Part shown: piece after piece, positions 16,067-61,263 of the stretch | Layout of the letters: each line of letters begins with the position of its first letter | How positions within the stretch are numbered: the stretch's first letter is position 1 | Assembly (NCBI GenBank): GCA_964574655.1 | Contig: CAZNOH010000001.1 | Coordinates: forward strand, 535,020-599,019 | DNA: 64,000 bases | Source of the DNA: an uncultured Candidatus Saccharibacteria bacterium | GTDB lineage: Bacteria; Patescibacteriota; JABMPQ01; JAQVVF01 | Direction: 5' to 3' | The notes under the pieces: model-generated | Databases searched by the model: none | Seen by the model: the letters and a program-made list of their open reading frames with translations, nothing else | Told to the model about the DNA's origin: nothing | Translations under genes and position numbers: made by a program

Positions 16067-16150
16067 TGGTGCCCGGAGCGGGATTCGAACCCGCATGTCT
16101 TGCGACGGAGGATTTTAAGTCCCCTGCGGCTACCTTTTCGCCATCCGGGC
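16067..16150 (-). tRNA. tRNA-Leu (anticodon TAA), long variable arm, CCA encoded
   Basis: Reverse complement folds as a cloverleaf: acceptor GCCCGGA/TCCGGGC, anticodon loop CTTAAAA, long variable arm, T-arm GGTTCGAATCC. Confidence 0.8.
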
Positions 16151-16554: not shown

Positions 16555-16691
16555 AAAAAGCATTGGAGTGAGCACAAAAAAAGAGCCCACTGAAAGTGAA
16601 CTCTTGAAGGAACGAACGCTGAAAGAACTGGAATTGTTGGAGAGAAGCCGCACCCGACGCACTTGCGTTTGTCGGATGGGAACTGAAGATT

Positions 16692-17276
16692 CTAGGGGAG
16701 CTTGAGGTAGTGGCCGCCGGAGGGATCCGACATGATCTTGAGACCATCGTAGACGTTGCATCCGACGACGGTCAGCCAGTCTTCGCCACTCCGAGGCCAC
16801 GCGGAATCGACACCAGCAGGAATCATCGCGCAAGCACCGTTGTTCGCCGTCTGCAGAGCGCAGACCGGCTCGACCCCAGGAGGCATGCACCCGAAGGTCC
16901 ACGCACCGAGGCCGACGATGTTGCCGCAGATCTGGCCGTTGTCGATCCACACCTCGCATATATCGGTGTCGGGCGGATTGTTGGGCACGCACTGGGTCTG
17001 GCCCGCCTGGCACTCGTTGCCACCTTCGCCTTCGCCCTCGCAGCCGCAGTCGCACCCCTCGCCCTCGCCTTCGCCACCGTCCACCACGCCACTGTCCGTC
17101 TCACCCTCGCCCTCGTTGCCCTCACCTTCTCCTTCTCCCTCACCTTCACCCTCGCCCTCGACGCCCTCACCCTCGCCCTCGTTGCCGTTGTCCTCCATGT
17201 CCTTCTCGCGCAGGGCGCAGTTCGTGTTGATGATCGTCAGGCCGAACAGGATCCACATCGTCGCGCGCTTCATCAC
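16692..17276 (-). CDS. secreted protein with (EG)n repeat and Cys-rich C-terminal domain, in the high-GC island
   Basis: GGAGGAGG RBS; N-terminal signal peptide; GEGEGEGEG tract; 14 cysteines; GC-rich codon usage unlike the host. Confidence 0.5.
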   Translation of the reverse strand: MMKRATMWILFGLTIINTNCALREKDMEDNGNEGEGEGVEGEGEGEGEGEGEGNEGEGETDSGVVDGGEGEGEGCDCGCEGEGEGGNECQAGQTQCVPNNPPDTDICEVWIDNGQICGNIVGLGAWTFGCMPPGVEPVCALQTANNGACAMIPAGVDSAWPRSGEDWLTVVGCNVYDGLKIMSDPSGGHYLKLP

Positions 17277-17351
17277 AGCACCTCCTCCTCTCTCGTTGAC
17301 TCACCCGAACCGGGCGCTCGACTCCTTGCGAAGCCGAGCGCCCGGACGACT

Positions 17352-18416
17352 CTAGAACCGCACGCCGAAGTTACCGGCGCCGGACTTGATCATCTGCCAC
17401 CCACGCCGGTCCTCCACGTCACCCTTGAGCTCGCCACGCATCTCGTAGATGAACGACCAGCCCTCGAGCTTCGCGAGTTCTCCGACGAATCCCACGCCAC
17501 CACCGACCTCACCGCGACCGAAGTACATGTGGGTGTCGAGGTCGAACGTCCTGCCGATCAGACAGAAGTGTGGCTTGATCCACTGCTTCCAGTCGTACTC
17601 GGCGTTCAGCTCGAACCCGGCAGCACCGACCTCGTTGGCCTTGCCGTACTGCGCGCCCACCCCGATGGTCCAGCTCTCGCTGACCGGGAAGTTGACACGG
17701 AGCATGGCTCCGACGAAGTTGTCGCGCTCGGGGCTCCAGAGGTACTGTCCGACCAGGTCGTAGGTGATGTTCACCTTGGCCTCGCCGTCGTCACCCCTGC
17801 AATCCATCACGTCGCACTTCGTGTCCTTGTTCACGTCCTCATCACCATCACACTTGTAGTTTTCATTGCTGTCCCAGCACTGGACCGACGGCTTGGGCAG
17901 GCAGTCTTCCACGAGCCGGATGATAGCACCGCGCTGCCCTTCCTGGGCTCGCGTGAACATCGTCCCCTCGCGGATTCTGTTGCCGTTGACACCGATCTCC
18001 ATCAGCTTGTTCATCATGTAGCTCGCCCGCGCCCGCGCCCGAACAGCCCTGAGCGGATCCTGACCCCCAGCAGCGCGCACCTCTGCGGTGCCGCCGAACG
18101 GGGTCACGTCCTCCACCCCGCTGACTTCCAGGCATCCGAACTGAGCGGTATCCAGAGTAGCCTTGGCGCCGTTGAGGGCGTCGGTCCACTCCGTCTTCCA
18201 GCTCACGTTCTGCCCGGTCAGGTCGGCGTTGAGGAACGTCCAGATCTTCTTCTGCGCGGTTGCCCGGTCTTCCTCGGCCACGGGGGCCTCGGGAGCCGGC
18301 TGCGCGTAGGCGATCTGTCCCTCCTCGTCGTCCATCCAGAAGTAGTTGTAGGGGTTGATGTTGAAGAAACCGCAGATGAAAACCACCACCATCAGCCAGT
18401 TGATCTTGCGCTTCAT
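17352..18416 (-). CDS. outer-membrane-protein-like protein (OmpA-like segment, Asp-rich Ca-binding-like motif, C-terminal Phe), in the high-GC island
   Basis: RBS GAGGAGG; signal peptide; segment RAVRARARASYMMNKLMEIGVNGNRIR resembles the OmpA C-terminal domain; CDGDEDVNKDTKCDVMDCRGDDGE; alternating beta-strand-like C-terminal half ending GVRF. Confidence 0.45.
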   Translation of the reverse strand: MKRKINWLMVVVFICGFFNINPYNYFWMDDEEGQIAYAQPAPEAPVAEEDRATAQKKIWTFLNADLTGQNVSWKTEWTDALNGAKATLDTAQFGCLEVSGVEDVTPFGGTAEVRAAGGQDPLRAVRARARASYMMNKLMEIGVNGNRIREGTMFTRAQEGQRGAIIRLVEDCLPKPSVQCWDSNENYKCDGDEDVNKDTKCDVMDCRGDDGEAKVNITYDLVGQYLWSPERDNFVGAMLRVNFPVSESWTIGVGAQYGKANEVGAAGFELNAEYDWKQWIKPHFCLIGRTFDLDTHMYFGRGEVGGGVGFVGELAKLEGWSFIYEMRGELKGDVEDRRGWQMIKSGAGNFGVRF

Positions 18417-18674
18417 CGTCTTGCCCTCCTCATCCTCGTTCTCTCGTGTTGTAGGGTCCTAACCCTGTTGTCGGAATCTGTAGAAAGTAACATTGAATAC
18501 TAGCACAATTGAAAAAATTTGTCAACAGGATTTGATGGTTTTACCTTATATAAGCCAAAATTTAACTCTAATTTGTTATAATTATGTTTATTTGGTAAAA
18601 TAGAAGCATTAAGTTATAAGCTATAAGCTATATTTTCTTATTGCTTACAGCTTTTAGCTATAGCTCAAAAAAAC

Positions 18675-32759: not shown

Positions 32760-32787
32760 AAATTTAAATTAAATTATTTTTAATTTT

Positions 32788-32879
32788 TTCTACTTGGCTT
32801 TAGCCAAAGGGTCAAAAAGCTTTAGCTTTCGTCGCCGAGAACTAAAGTTCTTTAACCCCTCAGCTAAAGCTGGGTAGAA
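32788..32879. repeat. REP/MITE-like palindromic element (TTCTACTTGGCTTTAGCCAAAGGG ... CCCTCAGCTAAAGCTGGGTAGAA), copy 1
   Basis: Terminal inverted repeats with GCTTTAGC/GCTAAAGC sub-hairpins; the right end supplies the last 5 codons and the TAG stop of the 32864..34108 gene. Confidence 0.6.
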
Positions 32880-34108
32880 ACGACACTTTCTCCAGCTAAA
32901 TATCCAGTACTCCAGCAAACCTGTAAATTATAGCCACCAGTTGGGCCGTCCAGATCTAATATTTCGCCAGCGAAATAAAGGTTGTCAATTATTTTTGACT
33001 TCATTGTTTTTGGATCTATTTCTTTCAAATCAATTCCGCCAGAAGTTACAATTGCTTTTTTGAAACCAGCAAGTCCCTGAATTTCTAGTTTAAATTCTTT
33101 TAATAAATGAACTAAGCTTTTTCTTTCATCTTTAGAGATTACATTCACCTTTTTATATGGATCAATATTTGAGAGTTTAATAATAACAGGAATTAATTTT
33201 TGAGGCAACAAATCATCTAAGCTATTCTTAAAGTATTTGCCATTAAATTTTTGAAAATCTCTGATAATCCTTAAATCTAATTTTTTGAAATCTAGAGCTG
33301 GCTTAAAATCAATTTGCATAGTAACTTTTTCGATCTTTAACAGTTCGCCAATTTTTTTACTCATGTCTAAAATTATTGGACCACTCACGCCTTCATGAGT
33401 AAACAAAGCCTCGCCGAATCTTTCATCCTGTTTTTTGTTATTTTGGTAAATGCTGATATTAACATTTTCTAAATTAAGACCTTGCAGATCTTTAATCCAT
33501 GATTCTCTAATTAAAACTGGAGTCAAGGCTGGCATTGGAGAAATGACGTTATGTCCTAGATCTTTAGCGAATTCAAAGCCCTCGCCTGTTGCGCCTGTTT
33601 CTGGATAAGACAAACCTCCGGTTGTTAATATGTAATTTTTGGCGTAAAAATCACCTTGCGATGTTTTTATTTTTACGATTTTATTTCCTTCTTTAATAAT
33701 TTTAGAAGCTTTTGCGTTTCCTAGAAATTTTACTTTATTTTTCATTAAATATTTTTCTAAAGCTTTTACAACACTTAATGCTGAATCAGTTGTTGGAAAA
33801 ATTCGGTTGCCATGCTCTACTTTTGTTTCAATTCCTAATTTCTTAAAAAAATCTAATGTGTCTTGAATGTTAAATCTGTTTAGCGCTTTATATAAAAATT
33901 TACCATTTTTTCCAAATTGATTAATAAAATTTTTAATATCTTCTTCTTGATGAGTGATGTTGCATCTGCCCTTGCCAGTTAATAGTAATTTGGCGCCAAC
34001 TTTTGGATTTTTTTCAATCAAAAGGACCTTGACACCAAGCTCAGCTGCTCTTCCTGCAGCCATGATGCCAGCGGGACCTGCACCGATTACTATTAGATCG
34101 TATATCAT
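32864..34108 (-). CDS. HI0933/BaiN-like FAD-dependent oxidoreductase (flavoprotein)
   Basis: N-terminal GAGPAG dinucleotide-binding motif, about 410 aa. Confidence 0.7.
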   Translation of the reverse strand: MIYDLIVIGAGPAGIMAAGRAAELGVKVLLIEKNPKVGAKLLLTGKGRCNITHQEEDIKNFINQFGKNGKFLYKALNRFNIQDTLDFFKKLGIETKVEHGNRIFPTTDSALSVVKALEKYLMKNKVKFLGNAKASKIIKEGNKIVKIKTSQGDFYAKNYILTTGGLSYPETGATGEGFEFAKDLGHNVISPMPALTPVLIRESWIKDLQGLNLENVNISIYQNNKKQDERFGEALFTHEGVSGPIILDMSKKIGELLKIEKVTMQIDFKPALDFKKLDLRIIRDFQKFNGKYFKNSLDDLLPQKLIPVIIKLSNIDPYKKVNVISKDERKSLVHLLKEFKLEIQGLAGFKKAIVTSGGIDLKEIDPKTMKSKIIDNLYFAGEILDLDGPTGGYNLQVCWSTGYLAGESVVSTQL

Positions 34109-42085: not shown

Positions 42086-42199
42086 AAAATCCTAAATCCA
42101 AAATTCTAAAACCAAATTTTAAGACAATGACGTCTGCTTTAGATTTTTTATTTTGAAATTTGAATTTATTTAGAATTTATAATTTGGGATTTAGAATTT
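42086..42199. repeat. long palindromic element, CTAAAT family copy with an aatGACGtctg centre
   Basis: aaaatcctaaatccaaaattctaaaaccaaatttt ... gaaatttgaatttatttagaatttataatttgggatttagaattt. Confidence 0.5.
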
Positions 42200-44721
42200 C
42201 ACAACGTCTTTACTCCTGCTACTTCTAATGCTTTTTTTTCAGATTCAGCAATTTGAGCTCTCTCCATTATCTCGCCTGCAACGATTGACTTACTGCGTCC
42301 ATATTGTAAGCGTGATAATTCTCTAACTGCATTCGCGATCTTCATGTTTGCACCTTCGGCTGGCGGATATGTTGCCATTGTAAATGCTTTTGATTTTGCG
42401 CTATCAATCATTAATCTAAGATAAGCGTGATATTTCTCAATATTAATAACATCATTTTCAGTGAAAACTGGCTCAAGCTCCTTGGCTACGATTTCTGCAT
42501 CTTCAACACCAACACGAAATGAGGTAAACGTACCGACGTTTCCAAAAACTGCATCTCTTATTTTTTCTTCAAGCTGTTTTATGTACTGGTGAGCGACGAT
42601 CAAATTGAGTTTGTATTTTCTAGCTTCAGACAAAATTGAAGCAAAGCTATCTGTAGCAAAATTTTGGAACTCATCAACGTATAAATAAAAATCCTTTCTT
42701 TCAGATTCTGGAATATCAGCGCGTGAATACGCTGCCATCTGAATCTTAGAAACAATAATCAAACCTAACAAAGACGAATTCGTCTCACCGATCTTGCCTT
42801 TAGAAAGATTTACAAGCAGAACTTTGCCTTCATCCATTATTTTTCTTAAATCAAACGACGAATGGCTCTGACCAATTATATTTCTCATCATTTCATTTTC
42901 CACAAAACGACCAACTTTAGAGATTATGTAACCCAACATTTCTGATTTATGAAAGTCTGAAGTTTTTGCCATTTCTTTTTCCCAGAAAGCTCGAACAACT
43001 GGATCTTTTAATTTTGCAATCCATTCTTTTGCATATTCAGTGTCTGTGAACATTCTCGGAATTTCTGCTAAAGTGCCTGGATTTTCTTTATCAGACATCA
43101 AAGTCAGCATAACATTTCTCATTTGGTGTTCGAACATCGGACCGATCATCTCTGGCGGAAATAATTTGAAGAAAATTTGCATCATCTCCTGTACAGCAAA
43201 ATCTTTTTGATCTTCTGTTTTAAATTCAAGCATATTTAAACCCATCGGACGATCAATATCAAAAGGTTCAAACAAAATAACATCGTCAACTCTTTCTTTT
43301 GGAATGAAAGGCAAAATACTTTCAACTAAATCACCATGCGGATCAACAACGCAGATGCCTTTGCCAGCTTTGATATCCTGGATAATCATATTTTGCAAAA
43401 GATTGGATTTACCAACACCGGTTTGACCAATAACATACATATGCCTTCTTCGATCATCATCTTTGATGTGAATAGGAGTTTCGATTCCACGATAGACATT
43501 TTTTCCTAATAGCAAGCCTTGTTTTGGAGTATTGTGCGGAGCTGGAGCATCACGAGCCAATAGCCAATGGACATTTGGAGTTTCGGTGAATTTTGTTGGA
43601 AGATGGAATATTGATGCTAACTCTTCAGTATTAAGAATACACTTTTTTTTATTGTCAAAACTGCGGAATATAAAATCCTGAATTAATTTTGATAAGCGAA
43701 CTTTGCGCTTAAAGAATTTGTTTGATGATGGGTCTGCATATTGCGAAAAAGCGCCAATAATGCTTTCTAAAGTTTCTTCTGCTTTAGTCTCTTGATCTGA
43801 GCAAGCGATGATTCTAATATTTGTGAAAAAGCCGAGCTTGTTTGATTTTATTTCTAAAGCTTTGATTCTTTCTTGGACCAAAGGTGACAAATTTGGCAGT
43901 CCTCCTGATTGTGATTGTTCTGGTCCAGACATAGGGTTGACTGCTTGTTCTAGAACACTTCTTTCTTCTTCTTTTTTTCGACGGAAAAGTTTGCCAATAA
44001 GATTTGCAGAGGCATGCTCATATGTTTCGCCACGTTGCATTTTTCTAGCAATGTGCGGTCCTTCTTTCATCCAAGACTTGCCTGCAGGACGAATTAGATA
44101 TTGAATTGCTGCACCTTCTGTTTTTTCATTTAATTTACTCAAAGCATTTGTAATGCCGTTCAATGGATCTGATTCAATGGTCTGATAGGTCTTGATTGGC
44201 AGAAAATCTTGGTTTTCAGTTGTTAACATGGCGCCTCTAATCTTGCACTTTGGAGTAAAAATATTATACTCACCCTCTTCAGAAATGAAAGCTTTAGGAA
44301 ATTGAGAGTGGATAACTTTTTCAACATATTGTTGCAATCTCCTTGGCACTGCAACATAAAAACGAATTTCTCCTTTTAACGAGACTATTTCAAAAGATAT
44401 ATATTCTTTTCCATAAAAACTTGCCAACAAACCCTTAGTAACTGATTCAATAGAATGAAGATTGGCAAACATAGTTTCAGCAACAGAAATCATTTCTTTT
44501 TCTTCTTTCTTGGCTTCTTCAGCAACTGGCTTGGTTTCTTTTGGAACAGAAATGAGCAAGGTAACCATATCAAGAGAATGCGGTATTATGTTTCTTTTTT
44601 TGAGAGCAGAAATTACTAAAAGATATAATAATATAGCCAAAGCTAAAAGAGTTATTACAAAAATAATGCTAACAAACGGTTCAGAACTAGAACTGAATAA
44701 ATTAATATAATTACTTATCAT
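42199..44721 (-). CDS. membrane-anchored VirD4/TraG/TrwB-like (type IV coupling protein / DUF87-type) P-loop ATPase
   Basis: N-terminal TM helix; Walker A VIGQTGVGKSN; Walker B region DEFQNF ... LIVAHQ. Confidence 0.55.
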   Translation of the reverse strand: MISNYINLFSSSSEPFVSIIFVITLLALAILLYLLVISALKKRNIIPHSLDMVTLLISVPKETKPVAEEAKKEEKEMISVAETMFANLHSIESVTKGLLASFYGKEYISFEIVSLKGEIRFYVAVPRRLQQYVEKVIHSQFPKAFISEEGEYNIFTPKCKIRGAMLTTENQDFLPIKTYQTIESDPLNGITNALSKLNEKTEGAAIQYLIRPAGKSWMKEGPHIARKMQRGETYEHASANLIGKLFRRKKEEERSVLEQAVNPMSGPEQSQSGGLPNLSPLVQERIKALEIKSNKLGFFTNIRIIACSDQETKAEETLESIIGAFSQYADPSSNKFFKRKVRLSKLIQDFIFRSFDNKKKCILNTEELASIFHLPTKFTETPNVHWLLARDAPAPHNTPKQGLLLGKNVYRGIETPIHIKDDDRRRHMYVIGQTGVGKSNLLQNMIIQDIKAGKGICVVDPHGDLVESILPFIPKERVDDVILFEPFDIDRPMGLNMLEFKTEDQKDFAVQEMMQIFFKLFPPEMIGPMFEHQMRNVMLTLMSDKENPGTLAEIPRMFTDTEYAKEWIAKLKDPVVRAFWEKEMAKTSDFHKSEMLGYIISKVGRFVENEMMRNIIGQSHSSFDLRKIMDEGKVLLVNLSKGKIGETNSSLLGLIIVSKIQMAAYSRADIPESERKDFYLYVDEFQNFATDSFASILSEARKYKLNLIVAHQYIKQLEEKIRDAVFGNVGTFTSFRVGVEDAEIVAKELEPVFTENDVINIEKYHAYLRLMIDSAKSKAFTMATYPPAEGANMKIANAVRELSRLQYGRSKSIVAGEIMERAQIAESEKKALEVAGVKTL

Positions 44722-45497: not shown

Positions 45498-46604
45498 ATG
45501 ACAACAAGTATTTGGGCTATCATTTTTTTAGTTGCAGTTGCTATTGCTTATTTGATTTGGCTGAATCGCGATCGCTTCAAAGGAGTTGGCAGAAAAACTT
45601 CTGGAGGCGGAAAAACTCCGATTCTTGATTCTTATTCTAGAGATGTAACTACAGATGCAAGAGAAAAAAGATTAGATCCTGTTATTGATCGCGAATCTGA
45701 AATTGAAAGAATTACGCAAATATTATCAAGAAGAACTAAAAATAATCCAATTCTATTAGGAAAGGCTGGCGTTGGCAAAACAGCAATTGTGGAAGGATTG
45801 GCGCAAAGAATTGTAGAAAAAAAAGTACCAGAAAGTTTGCAAAACAAAAGAGTGTTGGCATTGAATGTCAGCAGTTTAATTGCTGGCACAAAATACAGAG
45901 GCGAATTTGAACAGAGATTAAGAAAAGTAATGGATGAACTTAAAGCTTCAAATAGAACTATTATATTATTTATTGATGAAGTGCATTTGATCGTCCAATC
46001 AAAGGGCGCTGAAGGCGCTTTAGATCCATCTGATATTCTTAAACCGGCATTATCAAGAGGAGATTTGCAAGCTGTTGGCGCAACAACTTTAGATGAATAT
46101 AATCAATATATCAAGCCAGAAGCAAGTTTGGAAAGGCGTTTTCAACCTGTTATGGTTGAACCGCCAGACTTGGAAATGACAGTAAAAATTTTAGAGGGCT
46201 TAAAAAAAGTTTATGAAGACCATCATAAAGTAACTATTACTCCTGAAGCAATCTCTGCAGCAGTAAAATTATCTGACAAATATATTAAGAATAGATATTT
46301 GCCGGACAAAGCAATTGATTTGATTGATGAAGCTTCAGCAATGGTTAGATTGCAAATTATTGATGCGCCTGGAAAAATAAAGCAATTAGAAGCAAAGCTT
46401 TTAGAAGTTCAACAAAAAAGAGAAAAAACGACTAATGAAATAGAAATTAAAAATTTGTCACAGAAGGAATTAGAAATTAACGAAAAAATTGAGCGATTAC
46501 AATTATCCGCACAAGAAGAAAAATCTGGGACAAAAGTTCCTGAAGTTAAGGCAATTGATATTAAAGAAGTGCTGGAAGAATGGATTGGCAAAGATGTCGA
46601 ATAA
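45498..46604 (+). CDS. membrane-anchored Clp/Hsp100-like AAA+ ATPase consisting of a D1 module only
   Basis: N-terminal TM helix; ILLGKAGVGKTAIVEGLAQRIV Walker A, FIDEVH Walker B, and the sensor of ClpB/ClpC D1 plus the start of the coiled-coil M-domain; no D2. Confidence 0.6.
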   Translation: MTTSIWAIIFLVAVAIAYLIWLNRDRFKGVGRKTSGGGKTPILDSYSRDVTTDAREKRLDPVIDRESEIERITQILSRRTKNNPILLGKAGVGKTAIVEGLAQRIVEKKVPESLQNKRVLALNVSSLIAGTKYRGEFEQRLRKVMDELKASNRTIILFIDEVHLIVQSKGAEGALDPSDILKPALSRGDLQAVGATTLDEYNQYIKPEASLERRFQPVMVEPPDLEMTVKILEGLKKVYEDHHKVTITPEAISAAVKLSDKYIKNRYLPDKAIDLIDEASAMVRLQIIDAPGKIKQLEAKLLEVQQKREKTTNEIEIKNLSQKELEINEKIERLQLSAQEEKSGTKVPEVKAIDIKEVLEEWIGKDVE

Positions 46605-46636: not shown

Positions 46637-48043
46637 ATGGCGGAAACACTAATAAAAACAACAACTAAAGTCCGCGTTGGCACATTGATTGGCGTCTTAT
46701 TTGCTGGCGCTGCAATGATGGCAGCAATGGGCTACACGGTTTATAAAGGCGCCTACAAAAATGAGTCAATTATTCCCCAATCAATTGTAGAGAAAAAAAG
46801 TACGGGTCCAAATATTCAGGATTTGTTCCCAGTTCTAGCTTATAAAGCTGGCTGGCCGAGAAGCATTAGCGGTGTTCCTTCAAGAACAACTGTTGGTGAT
46901 ATTGACAATGATAAAAAGCCAGAAATTATTTTTGGTACAAGCGAACATTTGATTTATGCTTTGAATGATGATGGATCTGAAGTTCCGAATTGGCCGATTA
47001 AAATTGATGAATATTTGGGAAAATCTGTTCCTTCTATTGCAGATCTGAATCTTGATGGCAAGCTTGAAGTTATTATTGGAACAAGCAATTCTGTTTATGC
47101 ATTTTCAGGCAATGCTGGAATTATGAATGGCTGGCCGAAAGCTTTGGAAAATTTAGGTAACGAAAATACGCCTGTGATAGCTGATATTACTTCTGATAAT
47201 AAAATGGAAATTATTGTTTATGGCGACAGAATTATTTATGCTTTATCTGATAATGGATCAATTATTTCTGGCTGGCCGAAAGAAACAAGCGAAAAAATCA
47301 CTTCTGCCGTAGCTTCAGGAGATTTAAATGGAGATTTTAAGTCTGAAATTGCTTATACTGTTTTAGAATCTGGCAAGACTAAATTATATGCTTTGAAAAA
47401 TGATGGTCAAGTTTTGGCTGGCTTTCCAAAAGAAATTGATTCTACTTCTCCTGAAATGGAAATTGTATTAGGAAATGTGATGAATGCAACTGACACAAAT
47501 ATTATTGTTAGCACAAAAGAAAAAGATATTTTAGTTTATGCTACAGACGGAAGACAGCTTTTATCTGTAAATTTTGAAGATGGCGTTTCTGATCTTGCAT
47601 TAGGCGATGTTGATAATGATGGAAAAGCAAATATTGCTTTTGCAAATAAATCTGGCGTTCATGTCTTAGGTAACTTGGGAGTTGATATTAGCGGCTGGCC
47701 AAAAAATTCTGAAAAAGGCATTAGGTTTGTTAATTTAGCTGATCTTGATAATGATGGCAATTGCGAGATTTTAGGAACTGCTGATGACAGAATTTACGCT
47801 TGGAAAAATAATGGCGAGATACTAAAAAATAACTGGCCTCTTGCTGTTGAATCTTCTGGCGGAAATTTTTTAACCTATCCAACATTATCTGATGTTGATA
47901 ATAATAAAGTTTTGGAAGTTATTTCAAGCCTAACTGATAATTCTGTTTACATTTGGAATCTCTCTGATTTTTATGATAAATCTGGAAAATCTTGGTGGCC
48001 GATGGAAAGAGCTGATGTGAGAAATTCTGGGAGCTTGAGATGA
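46637..48043 (+). CDS. FG-GAP/beta-propeller repeat protein with N-terminal anchor
   Basis: Seven repeats of the D-x-D/N-x-D-G-x-x-E-I-I type with adjacent NGWP motifs. Confidence 0.55.
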   Translation: MAETLIKTTTKVRVGTLIGVLFAGAAMMAAMGYTVYKGAYKNESIIPQSIVEKKSTGPNIQDLFPVLAYKAGWPRSISGVPSRTTVGDIDNDKKPEIIFGTSEHLIYALNDDGSEVPNWPIKIDEYLGKSVPSIADLNLDGKLEVIIGTSNSVYAFSGNAGIMNGWPKALENLGNENTPVIADITSDNKMEIIVYGDRIIYALSDNGSIISGWPKETSEKITSAVASGDLNGDFKSEIAYTVLESGKTKLYALKNDGQVLAGFPKEIDSTSPEMEIVLGNVMNATDTNIIVSTKEKDILVYATDGRQLLSVNFEDGVSDLALGDVDNDGKANIAFANKSGVHVLGNLGVDISGWPKNSEKGIRFVNLADLDNDGNCEILGTADDRIYAWKNNGEILKNNWPLAVESSGGNFLTYPTLSDVDNNKVLEVISSLTDNSVYIWNLSDFYDKSGKSWWPMERADVRNSGSLR

Positions 48044-48084
48044 TGGGAAATGTGATGCTAGAAATTGAATATTAAATATTAAAA

Positions 48085-48116
48085 TAAAAAAACCGGTAGA
48101 TTAAATGCCGGTTTTT
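48085..48116. terminator. bidirectional terminator AAAAAAACCGG-tagattaaatg-CCGGTTTTT
   Basis: Hairpin flanked by an A-run and a T-run between convergent genes. Confidence 0.5.
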
Positions 48117-48145
48117 GATTGAGCGAAATTTTTTAAGGTTCTTTT

Positions 48146-48496
48146 TTATGGACATTTTCCGTCTGATCTCCAAACTACTTCTCCGTCACAAACCATCGAT
48201 TTCGCAGGAAAAGGACTAATGGAATCTAAAACGCCATATGGAACATTATTGCATGCAACATATACATGATTGCAGGCTCCGGTTGAAAAGAAAAGGATAG
48301 TCAAAACCAGAGCAAAAATGCCAACGGTTGCGCGAATACTGCCCTCTTCAGCATTCGCAATAATAAATCCAGCGACTATCCAGATAAAAGCGACAACGCT
48401 GAGAACTCCTAGGATTCCGCCGATTGCAGCGCCAAGAACAAAAAGGACTCCAAAAAAAAGAATGATGACAACAATAATTCCAACTATCAGTCCCAT
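48146..48496 (-). CDS. small membrane protein (116 aa) with Cys-containing C-terminal tail, intermediate-GC
   Basis: GGAGGGAAAGAAG RBS before the ATG; three hydrophobic helices; divergent from the LOG-like gene. Confidence 0.45.
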   Translation of the reverse strand: MGLIVGIIVVIILFFGVLFVLGAAIGGILGVLSVVAFIWIVAGFIIANAEEGSIRATVGIFALVLTILFFSTGACNHVYVACNNVPYGVLDSISPFPAKSMVCDGEVVWRSDGKCP

Positions 48497-48584
48497 CTTC
48501 TTTCCCTCCTGCTTGGGTTTAAAAGAGCTATGAAATAGTTTAATCTTTTATCTAAAAAAACACAAGAGTATACGCTTTTTTTCT

Positions 48585-48613
48585 TTGACAAAAATTATTT
48601 ATTATGCTATGTT
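48585..48613 (+). promoter_or_regulatory. sigma70-like promoter TTGACA-17-TATGTT for the LOG-like gene
   Basis: ttgacaaaaattatttattatgctatgtt about 40 nt upstream of RBS AAGGAGGAGG. Confidence 0.5.
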
Positions 48614-48653
48614 TAAAAATTGAATTTGCACCTGAGAGAAGGAGGAGGAAAAG

Positions 48654-49184
48654 ATGGCGAGGATCGCAATCATCGGTGGCTCAGCAGATGAAAAGATTCG
48701 CGATGAATTGGTAGAAAAAATCACTCGCGAACTGGTTGCAAGAAAACATCAAGTATTCCATGGCGGATTGGATTTTGGAGTCATGCTTGCCTGTCATAAA
48801 GGTGGCGGTATTGGCATTACTCACCAAGATCAAATTGACGGTGGCTTTGCTTTAGCTGATGCCATGAACGTTAGCGTGTTGAAACATCAATTTCCTGGAT
48901 TCAATGAAATTGATTTTGGACGCGCAATTCGTCATCAGCTGTTGACACAAGAGTGCGATTTGGTAATTGCTTTCGGAGGTGGAATCAGAACTTTTGACGA
49001 GCTGATTGGAGCAATCATGACAAAGAGAAAGATTGTTCTTGTAGGACACGATTGGTCGCCTTTGCTATATGTTTTGTTTGGAAAAATCGAGATCGAGCAT
49101 GAAAAAACCTTGCTATGCAAAGTTTTACCTCACCATCCAATTGAAACCATTGTGTCTGCAATCGAAGCTCATTTGAAGAAATAG
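48654..49184 (+). CDS. LOG/TIGR00725-like (SLOG Rossmann) nucleotide-binding protein
   Basis: IAIIGGS ... GGLDFGVMLACHKGGGIGIT ... VIAFGGGIRTFDELIGA matches the GGGxGxM ... PGGxGTxxEL pattern of LOG-family proteins; strong RBS. Confidence 0.55.
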   Translation: MARIAIIGGSADEKIRDELVEKITRELVARKHQVFHGGLDFGVMLACHKGGGIGITHQDQIDGGFALADAMNVSVLKHQFPGFNEIDFGRAIRHQLLTQECDLVIAFGGGIRTFDELIGAIMTKRKIVLVGHDWSPLLYVLFGKIEIEHEKTLLCKVLPHHPIETIVSAIEAHLKK

Positions 49185-49206
49185 AGACTGTTAGTCTCTT
49201 TTTTAT
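49183..49206 (+). terminator. intrinsic terminator AGAGACT-gtt-AGTCTCT plus T7
   Basis: Perfect 7-bp stem then ttttttatt, overlapping the stop codon. Confidence 0.55.
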
Positions 49207-49300
49207 TGACTCACACTAATACCACACGAATTACACTAATGCTTTTTTCGAATAAGCTATTTGTAAATTTGGTTAAAAAATGATAATTTATAAATATAGT

Positions 49301-49412
49301 TTCTACTTGGCTTTAGCCAAAGGGTCGAAGAGCTTTAGCTCTTTTTATGGCTAAAGTTCATTAAAAATTTTGCAATCCAAAATTTTTAATCCCCAGCTAA
49401 AGCTGGGTAGAA
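49301..49412. repeat. REP/MITE-like element copy 2 (full length), immediately upstream of cysS
   Basis: ttctacttggctttagccaaagggtc ... ccccagctaaagctgggtagaa. Confidence 0.6.
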
Positions 49413-49425
49413 ATCTAAAAAGACT

Positions 49426-50850
49426 ATGCTAAAAATATACAATACATTATCAAGAAAAACTGAAGAATTTAAATCGTTGAAAGATAATCAAGTTGGGCTA
49501 TATACATGTGGTCCGACTGTTTATAATTATGCTCATATTGGAAATTTAAGAACTTATGTTTTTGAGGACGTTTTAAAACGTGTTTTAATTTATAATAATT
49601 TTGAAGTAAGGCATGTTATGAATATTACTGATGTTGATGACAAGACAATAAAAGCTGCTAACGGAAATAAAAATGAATTGGCTAAATTGACAAAAGATTA
49701 TGAAAATAAATTTTTTGAAGATTTGGATAAACTAAATATTATCAAGCCTGATGTTGTTACAAATGCCGTAAAATATATTGAAAAAATGGTTTTATTTATT
49801 CAGGAATTAATTGATAAAGACTTTGCCTATAAAACAGAAGATGGATCAGTTTATTTTAAAATTGAGAAATTTAAAGATTATGGAAAATTAGCCAAGCTAG
49901 ATAAATCAGGATTGAAAGTTGGAGCTCGAGTAAATAATGATGATTATGAAAAAGAGAATTTGTCTGATTTTGTTTTGTGGAAAAGTTATGACAGCGATGA
50001 TGGCGAAATTTATTGGGAAACAAAATTAGGAAAAGGCAGACCAGGCTGGCATATTGAATGTTCAACAATGGCGCAAGATATTCTTGGCGATACTTTAGAT
50101 ATTCATGCTGGTGCTGTTGATTTGATTTTTCCTCATCATGAGAATGAAATTGCTCAAGCTGAAAGCAAAACAGGAAAGCCATTTGCAAATTATTTTATTC
50201 ATGGTGAACATCTTTTGGTAGAAGGCAAGAAAATGTCAAAAAGCTTGAATAATTTTTACACGCTAAAAGATATTGTTGGCAAAGGCTTCTCCCCTCTTGA
50301 TTTTCGTTATTTGGTTTTAGGCTGTCATTATCGAACAAAATTGGATTTTAGTTTTGATAATTTGAAATCAGCTCAGAATGCTTTGAATAAACTTTATGAG
50401 AGAATTAGAGATTTTAAAGATTCAGGCGAAATTTCTGAAGAATTTAAGGTTAAATTTTTAGAAGCAATTAATAATGATTTAGACATGCCAAAAGCATTGG
50501 CTGTTGTTTGGGAAATGCTGAAGTCTGATTTAGATGATGGAATTAAAAAAGCAACACTAGAGGATTTCGATAAAGTACTTGGACTTGGATTATCTTACGT
50601 AGAAGTTGAAGGACCTGAAGGGTCTGAACAGCTTTTGACAAAGATTGATGAATTACGATCAGACAAAAAATTTAAGGAATCGGATAACTTAGCTAGGAAA
50701 ATTGAAGAACATGGTATTGAGCTTGAGGATTCTCGTACTGGAACGAAAATAAAGATTGCTGGAGGCAATAAAGTAAAATTTGGTGACGGAGTAAAAATAG
50801 TAATTGGAAAAAATGTTAAGATAAATTTTCCTGACAAAAAAGATAATTAG
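49426..50850 (+). CDS. cysS: cysteinyl-tRNA synthetase
   Basis: HIGN and KMSKS motifs plus the CysRS N-terminus YTCGPTVYNYAHIGN. Confidence 0.9.
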   Translation: MLKIYNTLSRKTEEFKSLKDNQVGLYTCGPTVYNYAHIGNLRTYVFEDVLKRVLIYNNFEVRHVMNITDVDDKTIKAANGNKNELAKLTKDYENKFFEDLDKLNIIKPDVVTNAVKYIEKMVLFIQELIDKDFAYKTEDGSVYFKIEKFKDYGKLAKLDKSGLKVGARVNNDDYEKENLSDFVLWKSYDSDDGEIYWETKLGKGRPGWHIECSTMAQDILGDTLDIHAGAVDLIFPHHENEIAQAESKTGKPFANYFIHGEHLLVEGKKMSKSLNNFYTLKDIVGKGFSPLDFRYLVLGCHYRTKLDFSFDNLKSAQNALNKLYERIRDFKDSGEISEEFKVKFLEAINNDLDMPKALAVVWEMLKSDLDDGIKKATLEDFDKVLGLGLSYVEVEGPEGSEQLLTKIDELRSDKKFKESDNLARKIEEHGIELEDSRTGTKIKIAGGNKVKFGDGVKIVIGKNVKINFPDKKDN

Positions 50851-51014: not shown

Positions 51015-52367
51015 ATGGAAAACCAAAGCGAAAATTTTGAAAAATTACCGCCGAGAAATAAGGAAGCTGAACAATCAGTGTTGGGCTCTCTTTTGATTGA
51101 TAAAGATGCAATTATTAAAGTATCTGATTTTTTGCGATCAGAAGATTTTTATGAAGAAAAAAATAGCATTATCTTTTCTTCAATGCTGGAATTATACGAA
51201 AAGCGCGAGCCAATTGATGTCGTAAGCTTGGCTAATTCTTTGACTGACAAAGACCATTTGGATTTAATCGGCGGACGAAGTTATTTAGTTTCATTGGCTA
51301 ATATAGTACCAACTGCTGGAAATATTATTCATTATGCTAAGATTGTTCAGAAAAAATCGACTTTAAGAAAACTAATTTCTACGGCTGGCGATATATCAAG
51401 ATTAGGATATCAAGAAGGAAAAGATATTGAAAAATTGTTAGATGAAGCTGAGCAAAAATTGTTTGGCATTTCACAAAAATATTTAAAGCAAAATTTTATT
51501 GTTATTAAAGATGTTCTAACTGATGCTTTTGAAAGAATTGATGAATTGCACAGAGATGGCAGTAAACTTCGAGGAATTCCAACTGGCTTTCCTGCTTTAG
51601 ATAATGTTTTGGCTGGTTTCCAAAAATCTGATTTGATAATTTTAGCAGCTAGGCCATCTATGGGTAAAACATCTTTAGCGCTAGACTTTGCAAAAAATAT
51701 CGCAAAGCAAAAAATACCTGTTGGCATATTCAGCCTGGAAATGTCTAAAGAACAGCTAGTTGACAGAATCCTTTGCTCAGAAGCAAATGTTGACTTGTGG
51801 CGAATGAGAACAGGAAAATTGTCGGACCGCGAAGAGGATGATGACTTTCCGAGAATCGGTCATGCCATGGGCGTTCTTTCAGAGGCTCCAATATATATTG
51901 ATGACTCCCCTTCTTCAAACATCATGGAGATGAGAACAAAAGCGCGAAGATTACATTCTGAACATGGCTTAGGTTTTTTGGTTGTTGACTATTTGCAATT
52001 GATGGAAGGCCGTTCAACAGAAAATAGAGTGCAGGAAGTTTCAGAAATATCACGCGCATTAAAAGGAATTGCTCGCGAGCTTAATATTCCTGTTTTAGCT
52101 TTATCTCAGTTGTCACGTGCAGTAGAAAATAGATCTCCCCAGATTCCTCAATTGTCGGATTTAAGAGAAAGTGGTAGCATAGAACAGGATGCGGACGTGG
52201 TAATGTTTATCTATCGCGAAGAGGTTTATAAAAAAGATACGGAGAAAAAGAATATAGCAGAAATTCATATTAAAAAGCAACGAAATGGACCGACTGGTGT
52301 TATTGAATTGTTTTTTGAACAAAATGTTGCAAGCTTCCGTAATTTGGAAAAAAGAAGAGAAATTTAA
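51015..52367 (+). CDS. dnaB: replicative DNA helicase
   Basis: DnaB N-terminal domain (EQSVLGSLLID), Walker A AARPSMGKTS, RecA-fold C-terminal motifs. Confidence 0.9.
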   Translation: MENQSENFEKLPPRNKEAEQSVLGSLLIDKDAIIKVSDFLRSEDFYEEKNSIIFSSMLELYEKREPIDVVSLANSLTDKDHLDLIGGRSYLVSLANIVPTAGNIIHYAKIVQKKSTLRKLISTAGDISRLGYQEGKDIEKLLDEAEQKLFGISQKYLKQNFIVIKDVLTDAFERIDELHRDGSKLRGIPTGFPALDNVLAGFQKSDLIILAARPSMGKTSLALDFAKNIAKQKIPVGIFSLEMSKEQLVDRILCSEANVDLWRMRTGKLSDREEDDDFPRIGHAMGVLSEAPIYIDDSPSSNIMEMRTKARRLHSEHGLGFLVVDYLQLMEGRSTENRVQEVSEISRALKGIARELNIPVLALSQLSRAVENRSPQIPQLSDLRESGSIEQDADVVMFIYREEVYKKDTEKKNIAEIHIKKQRNGPTGVIELFFEQNVASFRNLEKRREI

Positions 52368-60434: not shown

Positions 60435-60533
60435 TTCTACCTGGCTTTAGCCAGGGGGTTGGTGTGCTTTAGCTCTGGCCGTCGTCGACTTAGGACTAAA
60501 GTCCTTCGACCCTTTGGCTAAAGCCAAGTAGAA
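60435..60533. repeat. REP/MITE-like element copy 3 with left-type terminus at both ends
   Basis: ttctacctggctttagccaggggg ... gaccctttggctaaagccaagtagaa. Confidence 0.6.
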
Positions 60534-60536
60534 GTT

Positions 60537-61136
60537 CTACACGCCTTTAGGCAATGAGTTCGAAAATTTAGTGTTTGGTTTGATATTTGCAAGATCCTTA
60601 ATATTAATAAATCCTTTATTATCTTCTGATAAATCGATTACTGATCTAACTAATTCATGCATTTCTTTATCACTATATTTTTTTGCATAATAACCATAAC
60701 TTGAAAATTTGTTATTTTTTAATTCTTCAAAAGTGCTGACTTCTTTATGCTTTAATAAATTGCCAATAATATAACCAGTAACTCGCCAATCCATGATCTC
60801 GGATGCAATTTGTAAAAGTTTAGTACTCTGCCAAAGCTGTGTTTCTTTTATTACGTGCCAATATTTTTTCTTATACAAGAAAGATGTACCACCATGAAGA
60901 ATCTGTTTGATTTTTGGAATTAATAATCCATTCTTGAGATAAAATTTAATGTGAAAATGATTAATTGCGATGCTATAAGCGCTTATTTTAACATTATATT
61001 TAACTCTTAGTTTTTTGAATTGGTCATAAATGATTTGCTTTTGTTCTGGTTCGCTAAAATATGGAGTGTGTAAAAATGTGGAGGTTGTTAAAAAGTATAT
61101 GCAATCATTTGGCCAATATTGTTTTTGTTTGAACAT
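60537..61136 (-). CDS. putative HuH (Y1) transposase, RAYT-like, flanked by REP-like elements
   Basis: HuH-like motif AINHFHIKF, conserved downstream Tyr candidates, about 200 aa; flanked within 20 bp on both sides by the GCTTTAGC palindromic elements. Confidence 0.45.
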   Translation of the reverse strand: MFKQKQYWPNDCIYFLTTSTFLHTPYFSEPEQKQIIYDQFKKLRVKYNVKISAYSIAINHFHIKFYLKNGLLIPKIKQILHGGTSFLYKKKYWHVIKETQLWQSTKLLQIASEIMDWRVTGYIIGNLLKHKEVSTFEELKNNKFSSYGYYAKKYSDKEMHELVRSVIDLSEDNKGFINIKDLANIKPNTKFSNSLPKGV

Positions 61137-61151
61137 CTTTATAGAGAACTA

Positions 61152-61263
61152 GTGCTAAAGCCCATTAAAAATTTTGTAATCCAAAATTTTTAATCCCCTC
61201 AGCTAAAGCTGGGTAGAATATTTCTACCTGGCTTTAGCCAAGGGGTGTTGGAGCTTTAGCTCC
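61152..61263. repeat. REP/MITE-like element copy 4, circularly permuted (right half - tat - left half)
   Basis: gtgctaaagccc...cagctaaagctgggtagaa + tat + ttctacctggctttagccaaggggtgttggagctttagctcc. Confidence 0.55.

Follow-up and report, generated by a model that had tools for sequence, protein, structure and literature searches.

Do two short genes that point away from each other across a spacer of 157 bp form one functional unit, or do they merely lie side by side? The question is raised by a gene pair in a 64,000-nucleotide stretch of contig CAZNOH010000001.1 from an uncultured Candidatus Saccharibacteria bacterium (the whole stretch is called the window here, and its positions are used throughout). 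On the minus strand lies the gene of a 116 amino acid (aa) membrane protein (48146..48496), with an ATG start according to the list of open reading frames (ORFs) and the sequence; on the plus strand follows the gene of a 176 aa protein of the SLOG superfamily (48654..49184, ATG start). This second protein is assigned by hidden Markov model, structural model and homologues to PF18306 (LDcluster4), with a Rossmann fold like that of LOG proteins and of carriers of the molybdenum cofactor (Moco). An earlier note on this DNA had read the pair as a minimal module of SLOG sensor and membrane effector. The analysis reported here argues otherwise, and the two genes look like ordinary neighbours that are functionally not tied to each other. 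We consider it quite probable that they are two independent, separately transcribed genes, the 176 aa protein being a divergent, clade-restricted SLOG protein for which a LOG/PpnN-like role is favoured.

Phyletic distribution of the two genes

Neither the co-occurrence nor the adjacency of the two genes is conserved, and each of them is found without the other in relatives (sequences designated L003 to L014). The SLOG gene occurs without the 116 aa protein in the contigs of all four lineages with homologues (L007/L008/L014, L009/L013, L010/L011 and L012), as cross-checked with tblastn. The membrane gene in turn occurs without the SLOG gene in L003/L004/L005 and in L006, and in all these contigs it directly adjoins cysS, the gene of cysteinyl-tRNA synthetase. 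Homologues of the 116 aa protein are 85% identical to it in L003/L004/L005 and 74–76% identical in L006, and are confined to the clade of the window, L003 and L006. The ratio of non-synonymous to synonymous substitution rates (dN/dS) of the membrane gene is 0.19 between the window and L003, 0.21 between the window and L006, and 0.12 between L003 and L006. Such values indicate purifying selection and show that the ORF is a real gene. Present only in the closest relatives of the window, it is the younger gene of the two, kept under constraint with or without SLOG. Since the phyletic patterns differ, and since the membrane gene was kept after the loss of the SLOG gene, an obligate two-gene module is untenable. 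The natural deletion in the sister lineages, described below, shows that the SLOG gene can be dispensed with and has no functional tie to the membrane protein encoded beside it.

The SLOG gene lies in the same slot, between the gene of an FG-GAP repeat surface protein and cysS, in three of the four homologue lineages, and in two of these three a different envelope gene stands ahead of it. The order in L007/L008/L014 is AAA ATPase, FG-GAP, 155 aa multi-transmembrane protein, SLOG, REP-like (repetitive extragenic palindromic) element and cysS, the 155 aa gene of L007 being on the same strand as the SLOG gene and ending 22 bp before it. L009/L013 have AAA, FG-GAP, a divergently oriented gene of a 184 aa lipoprotein-like protein, SLOG, Y1 transposase and cysS. 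FG-GAP, SLOG and Y1 transposase genes follow each other in L010/L011, with no envelope gene of this kind between the first two, and the SLOG gene of L012 lies next to a divergent rve integrase gene. The 116, 155 and 184 aa slot neighbours are mutually unrelated. Proteins with transmembrane-like segments are encoded by 22 of the 67 genes of the window (approx. 33%), and small ones by nine (approx. 13%). A membrane neighbour of the SLOG gene is therefore to be expected often, as one third of the window genes encode membrane proteins.

Deletion of the SLOG gene and its rate of evolution

A stretch of about 805 bp (48618..49422), delimited by blastn breakpoints and alignments, is absent from L003/L004, L005 and L006. 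It comprises the ribosome-binding site, coding sequence and terminator of the SLOG gene, a promoter-like stretch of cysS, and a REP-like element. Two blocks of the window, 47000-48567 and 49423-50498, have counterparts in L003 that are separated by about 60 bp; in L006 these counterparts abut. Identity of the FG-GAP protein to that of the window is 82% in L003, 75% in L007, 49% in L009 and 38% in L010, and the CysS identities agree. The SLOG-less lineages are thus nested among SLOG-bearing ones, and the SLOG gene was therefore ancestral in this slot and deleted in the L003/L006 branch. The opposite polarity, with a cassette of higher GC content inserted in the window, is ruled out by the outgroups L007, L013 and L010, which carry the SLOG gene in the slot. 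A TAAAAA hexamer found at both breakpoints of the deletion was given no weight in such AT-rich DNA. The SLOG gene is thus an old gene of a small clade of Patescibacteria, inherited vertically at a fixed position between the FG-GAP and cysS genes.

The earlier note had described the pair as an intermediate-GC cassette. Both genes do have a GC content of 42% (94th–96th percentile), compared to a window mean of 33.7%. This is a mild rise only, reached by other housekeeping stretches of the window, and the conserved synteny rules out a recently acquired cassette.

The SLOG-less relatives keep the promoter of the deleted gene, as TTGAAA-17-TATTTT, just 9 nt ahead of the cysS start codon. At the junction (L003 9865-10000, and likewise L005 and L006, where the equivalent of window 48568-48617 is joined to 49423), cysS has no Shine-Dalgarno sequence and starts 9 nt past the -10 box. 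In these relatives cysS has thus captured the SLOG promoter, and its mRNA is probably leaderless or nearly leaderless as a product of the deletion. The clean removal of the SLOG gene in the sister lineages is an example of promoter capture, in which the promoter that once served the SLOG gene passed to cysS.

The SLOG gene also differs from its flanking genes in rate. Compared between window and L007, it has a dN of 0.52, whereas the FG-GAP gene and cysS have 0.17–0.20, with dS saturated. The SLOG proteins of the window, L007 and L013 are all about 44–45% identical to one another, although the flanking genes of the window and L007 are much closer. The dN/dS estimate for the SLOG gene is 0.25 (again with saturated dS). 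Dispensable and evolving about three times faster than the genes at its sides, it looks like a fast-evolving, losable gene, accessory rather than core.

Family and fold of the 176 aa protein

The 176 aa protein matches PF18306 (LDcluster4, ‘SLOG cluster4 family’) over residues 3-131 with 40.6 bits (E 2.5e-10), well above the gathering threshold of 26.3 bits, and its four homologues (P0005-P0008) pass this model too, with 33.8–43.4 bits. LOG-type Rossmann signatures had been reported for it earlier, and all three motifs, IIGGS, HGGLDFGVM and FGGGIRTFDEL, are indeed present. The label LOG/TIGR00725 (SLOG-type) given to it in the earlier note holds for the superfamily, through PF18306 and the fold, and fails for TIGR00725, to which the score is 34.4 bits against a cut-off of 106.9. 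Scores to TIGR00730 (15 bits, cut-off 96.35) and PF03641 (15.9 bits, cut-off 27) are also too low for membership. The protein belongs to the SLOG superfamily without being a TIGR00725 equivalog or a canonical LOG. The proposed module was to be given up if the protein grouped with canonical LOGs and occurred without the membrane partner in relatives; it does occur without that partner, as described above, and by the scores to PF03641 and TIGR00730 it does not group with canonical LOGs.

This subfamily is rare. When 1.84 billion representative proteins were searched exhaustively with HMMER, only four relatives other than the protein itself emerged, at 34–46% identity; among 5.8 billion proteins, a word-indexed search for the SLOG protein returned the self match only. 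A profile search for further relatives added only distant LOG-like proteins (E ~1e-4), and scans of contigs from genomes and metagenomes with the subfamily alignment led back to known lineages (L013, equivalent to L009, and L014, equivalent to L007). A literature search on TIGR00725 yielded no match. The result is a rare, fast-evolving SLOG subfamily of five Patescibacteria lineages, now placed in Pfam LDcluster4, which is of little import beyond annotation.

An AlphaFold (AF2) model built from the five-sequence alignment has a mean per-residue confidence (predicted local distance difference test, pLDDT) of 86.8 and a predicted template modelling score (pTM) of 0.85. Foldseek matched this model with a probability of 1.00 to structures of Moco carrier proteins (MCP), LOG and TM1055, with template modelling (TM) scores of about 0.6–0.7. 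The matches include the Moco-binding or carrier proteins 6Y01 and 2IZ5, the LOG structures 5ITS, 5ZBJ, 7W2I and 5WQ3, YgdH/PpnN, and TM1055 (1RCU). In a profile search against PDB sequences, 1RCU came first (7e-8), followed by 6Y01 (9e-6), 2IZ5 (8e-5) and LOGs (~1e-4). The predicted model thus shows a SLOG/LOG-type Rossmannoid fold, and the protein lies between the TM1055/Moco carrier group and the LOG phosphoribohydrolases.

Ligand pocket and probable function

In the LOG protein of Corynebacterium (CgLOG), Arg99 and Glu122 are the proposed catalytic pair, and Thr119 and Ser19 bind phosphate (PMC4979012). HMMER alignments to LOGs place R93, E116, T113 and S10 of the window protein at the positions of Arg99, Glu122, Thr119 and Ser19 of CgLOG, respectively, R93 being aligned to the Arg of the LOG ‘ERK’ segment and ‘FGGGIRTFDEL’ to ‘PGGxGTxDEL’. 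Residues R93, G109, T113, E116, G37, G38, G42 and M44 are invariant across the five-member subfamily, and the loop by which LOGs bind phosphate is kept. The PGGxGTxxE motif of LOGs is not found as such: the window protein reads GGGIRTFDE, with P changed to G and G to R, and its four homologues read xG[GA]xGTxxE, so that the LOG Pro is absent from all five members.

Ligand binding is favoured because these pocket residues are conserved, and a phosphoribosyl ligand is most likely, as judged from sequence comparison. Because the Arg and Glu aligned to the catalytic pair of LOGs are invariant, a nucleoside 5′-monophosphate N-glycosidase is the favoured activity. The protein would bind a ligand of the ribonucleoside 5′-monophosphate type and cleave its N-glycosidic bond, and this LOG/PpnN-like activity would serve accessory nucleotide salvage or turnover rather than sensing in a conflict system. 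Bacteria of the candidate phyla radiation (CPR) generally depend on scavenged nucleotides. If the 176 aa protein is such a nucleotide 5′-monophosphate nucleosidase, it may provide a minor accessory salvage step in organisms unable to make nucleotides.

Several observations weigh against this interpretation. The G112R replacement in the G-T phosphate loop is unique to the window copy, and together with the Gly in place of the LOG Pro it could change or weaken activity. Moco carrier proteins hold the same Arg and GxGTxxE without catalysis; the residues therefore indicate an intact ligand pocket and not catalysis as such, and their conservation does not tell whether the protein is an enzyme, a carrier or a sensor. 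As regards the independence of the two genes, of the four lineages whose upstream context is resolved, three (window, L007 and L013) have a small envelope-protein gene ahead of the SLOG gene, so that some looser tie to envelope proteins is conceivable. The relatives, moreover, are metagenome-assembled genomes or short contigs, and it is from database searches that the SLOG gene is taken to be absent from the rest of their genomes.

Alternative explanations

The top Foldseek matches being the Moco-binding structures 6Y01 and 2IZ5, and the profile matches to these two being stronger than those to LOGs, the protein might be a non-catalytic ligand carrier like the Moco carrier and binding proteins, which stores or hands over a pterin or another phosphorylated cofactor. 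Identity to these proteins is merely 14–18%, however, the best sequence match is TM1055 (1RCU), whose function is unknown, and the protein still has the Arg and Glu of LOG catalysis. Molybdoenzymes and cofactor pathways are usually missing from Patescibacteria whose genomes measure about 0.65 Mb, which also counts against a carrier, and we regard this explanation as rather unlikely. A different possibility is that the SLOG gene is decaying, under constraint that is relaxed in the clade, so that sister lineages deleted it and the copy in the window may have lost its function through G112R. Its loss in L003 and L006 and a dN exceeding that of the flanking genes about threefold would fit, as would the uniqueness of G112R and the fact that the window copy departs alone from eight otherwise invariant columns. 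The ORF, however, is complete and uninterrupted, and it has a strong ribosome-binding site, a promoter and a terminator; the ligand-binding residues are invariant across the subfamily; and the dN/dS estimate of 0.25, although affected by saturated dS, is below 1. The other members of the subfamily are similar in having 3–7 unique departures each. Decay thus appears improbable.

Both remaining explanations couple the SLOG protein to an envelope partner. According to the proposal of the earlier note, it would sense or process a nucleotide-derived signal and control the divergent 116 aa effector in a two-gene signalling or conflict module. SLOG domains are known from the literature as sensors in conflict systems, e.g. 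in ThsA, and the divergent arrangement with a short common control region of 157 bp and the mildly raised GC content are also compatible with such a module. Against it, the membrane gene persists in SLOG-less lineages (L003/L004/L005 and L006), where purifying selection maintains it, and four lineages have SLOG without the 116 aa protein. No defence-system signature was found either: PADLOC gave no hit for either protein, PHROGs gave no match, and tblastn against plasmids gave no homologues. No signal-generating partner (TIR, cyclase or SIR2) is encoded near the locus, whose neighbours are the FG-GAP, AAA ATPase, cysS and dnaB genes, and each gene has its own terminator, with no common operator seen in the divergent region apart from the two ribosome-binding site regions. 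We give very little credence to this module.

In a looser version, a constant SLOG sensor would work with swappable envelope partners (the 116 aa protein with three transmembrane segments and Cys-containing tail, the 155 aa multi-transmembrane protein, or the 184 aa lipoprotein) in a CPR-specific system that couples a nucleotide-derived signal, e.g. from the host or from phage infection, to the envelope of the episymbiont. The position of the 155 aa gene of L007 just 22 bp before SLOG on the same strand, the divergent orientation of the lipoprotein gene (L013/L009) and of the 116 aa gene (window) relative to SLOG, and the fast evolution of SLOG, which is frequent in conflict genes, can be cited in its favour. 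Yet L010/L011 have no gene of this kind between FG-GAP and SLOG, the upstream neighbour in L012 is the rve integrase, and the pattern, three cases of five, is weak given the frequency of small membrane proteins (~13%) and of membrane proteins in general (~33%) among the genes of the window. The 116 aa gene, moreover, was retained after the loss of SLOG, and there is no feature common to the partner proteins. Swappable partners are therefore highly improbable. Two separate neighbour genes, of which the SLOG gene would encode a LOG/PpnN-like accessory enzyme, remain the preferred reading.

The 116 aa membrane protein

The earlier description of a three-segment membrane protein with a Cys-containing tail was borne out. 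The protein has three hydrophobic segments, at about residues 2-22, 24-47 and 56-72, followed by a 44 aa tail with four Cys (C75, C82, C103 and C115) that are kept in both known homologous lineages. It matches no Pfam, NCBIfam, PADLOC or PHROGs family, and with a pLDDT of 61, and less than 50 in the tail, its AF2 model is too uncertain for a fold search. It would be a three-helix membrane protein whose four-Cys tail is probably extracytoplasmic; we infer that its topology is N-in/C-out and that disulfide bonds hold the outer tail.

The public call of the L006 homologue (P0004, 138 aa, at L006 637-1053) reads through a TGA stop. Under genetic code table 11, the P0004 ORF has the same end position as the window ORF (116 aa), and the overlong call is probably due to the genetic-code setting in the ENA annotation.

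Expression signals and genomic context

The divergent arrangement of the two genes, the length of the spacer and the presence of a ribosome-binding site before each gene agree in coordinates and sequence with what the earlier note had claimed. The Shine-Dalgarno sequence of the SLOG gene, AAGGAGGAGG (48639-48648, plus strand), lies 5 nt 5′ of the ATG, and that of the membrane gene, GGAGGG (48504-48509, minus strand; CCCTCC on the plus strand), 7 nt 5′ of its ATG; the latter is kept in L003, L005 and L006. The TTGACA-17-TATGTT promoter assigned earlier to the 176 aa gene was likewise found, at 48585-48613 (plus strand) 5′ of the SLOG gene, as a promoter-like element with a TG extension in which 10 of 12 positions match. 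Matches of such quality are common in this AT-rich window (7 observed, compared to 5.0 +/- 2.2 in shuffled sequences), and weight is given to this one because it is conserved in relatives. A similar element, TTGACA-17-TACAAT, lies upstream of the SLOG gene of L013, whose promoter and 5′ leader are homologous to those of the window gene.

Each gene is followed by a terminator-like structure. Downstream of the SLOG gene, the hairpin AGAGACT-GTT-AGTCTCT followed by a T-run (49183-49199, plus strand) has a homologous counterpart in L007, and the SLOG terminator and SLOG-cysS spacer of the window and L007 show recognisable homology. Between the convergent FG-GAP and membrane genes, the inverted repeat AAAAACCGG(11 nt)CCGGTTTTT (48088..48116), of which the same hairpin is found in L006, is likely a bidirectional terminator. 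A 21-nt inverted repeat (48493-48513 / 48637-48657) was considered as an operator and rejected, as it merely consists of the two ribosome-binding site and ATG regions facing each other. An Rfam scan of the intergenic regions gave no match.

The slot is bounded upstream by the conserved FG-GAP repeat surface-protein gene (46637..48043, plus strand) and downstream by cysS (49426..50850, plus strand), the conserved neighbour of the SLOG gene. The flanking genes are cysS, dnaB, ybaB, recR, the AAA+ ATPase gene and the FG-GAP surface protein gene. The gene content of the window is typical of Patescibacteria (CPR), and for the proteins encoded here, the nearest relatives in databases carry the NCBI name ‘Patescibacteria group bacterium’. 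Conserved neighbours are the genes for a membrane-anchored, single-domain ClpA/B-type AAA+ protein (45498..46604; AAA and AAA_lid_9, 368 aa) and for an 840 aa DUF87/TrwB-like ATPase (42199..44721), and the synteny of both is kept in all relatives examined. Weak PADLOC matches of the AAA+ protein to TRIP13 and IetA (~1e-5) look like generic AAA similarity.

The DnaB protein of the window (51015..52367) has 450 aa and is free of inteins. That of L007 (13420-16260) has 946 aa and contains an intein (Intein_splicing and LAGLIDADG), and L007 also has two additional small ORFs between cysS and dnaB.

Repeats and a GC-rich island

The SLOG-cysS spacer contains a REP-like palindromic repeat made of xGCTTTAGCx mini-hairpins (49297..49416), of which there are at least four copies in the window (32787-32880, 49297-49416, 60440-60533 and 61154-61260). 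GCTTTAGC occurs 20 times, compared to 2.9 expected. Two of the REP-like copies flank a Y1_Tnp gene (60537..61136, minus strand) of the IS200-like type, similar to REP-associated tyrosine transposases (RAYT). A homologous Y1 transposase gene is found in the SLOG-cysS spacer of L009/L013 and L010, and a related repeat in that of L007. In the relatives, the SLOG deletion has its right end no more than about 6 bp from the end of the repeat. Taken together, repeats and Y1 transposase appear to form a REP/RAYT system of this Patescibacteria genome.

A second region of unusual composition lies at 16600-18450, near a tRNA-Leu(taa) gene (16067-16150). This island of about 1.8 kb has a GC content of 58–70% and carries two minus-strand ORFs with signal-peptide-like N-termini, of 354 aa (17352..18416) and 194 aa (16692..17276), the latter with long Gly-Glu repeats and many Cys. 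Neither Pfam nor Rfam had a match for the island, which could stem from horizontal transfer or be a chimera of the assembly.

Comparison with known systems

Among proteins of solved structure, TM1055 of Thermotoga maritima (1RCU), which belongs to PF18306, is the best sequence match (E 7e-8, residues 22-171), and the likeness comprises the common Rossmann-like fold and the R...GxGTxxE layout. The window subfamily differs from it in its extreme divergence, the next matches beyond the four relatives having E values of only about 1e-4. The Moco carriers of Chlamydomonas (MCP, 2IZ5-7) and Rippkaea orientalis (6Y01) are the top structural matches, with TM scores of about 0.65–0.72; they are of similar size (approx. 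165–180 aa) and have the same Arg and G-x-G-T-x-x-E, at 14–18% identity. Unlike the conflict-system SLOG sensors, such as ThsA of Thoeris, which belong to the same superfamily and make small-molecule binding by the same pocket plausible, the window protein stands alone with 176 aa, without a fused or conserved adjacent effector or signal-producing enzyme; it matches no PADLOC model, and its neighbourhood is one of housekeeping genes. With the LOG and PpnN proteins (CgLOG 5ITS, Rv1205 7W2I, YgdH 9US2 and PpnN 6GFL) it shares the fold and the aligned catalytic Arg and Glu, and it differs from them by reading GGGIRTFDE where LOGs read PGGxGTxxE, and by scores below cut-off for PF03641 and TIGR00730.

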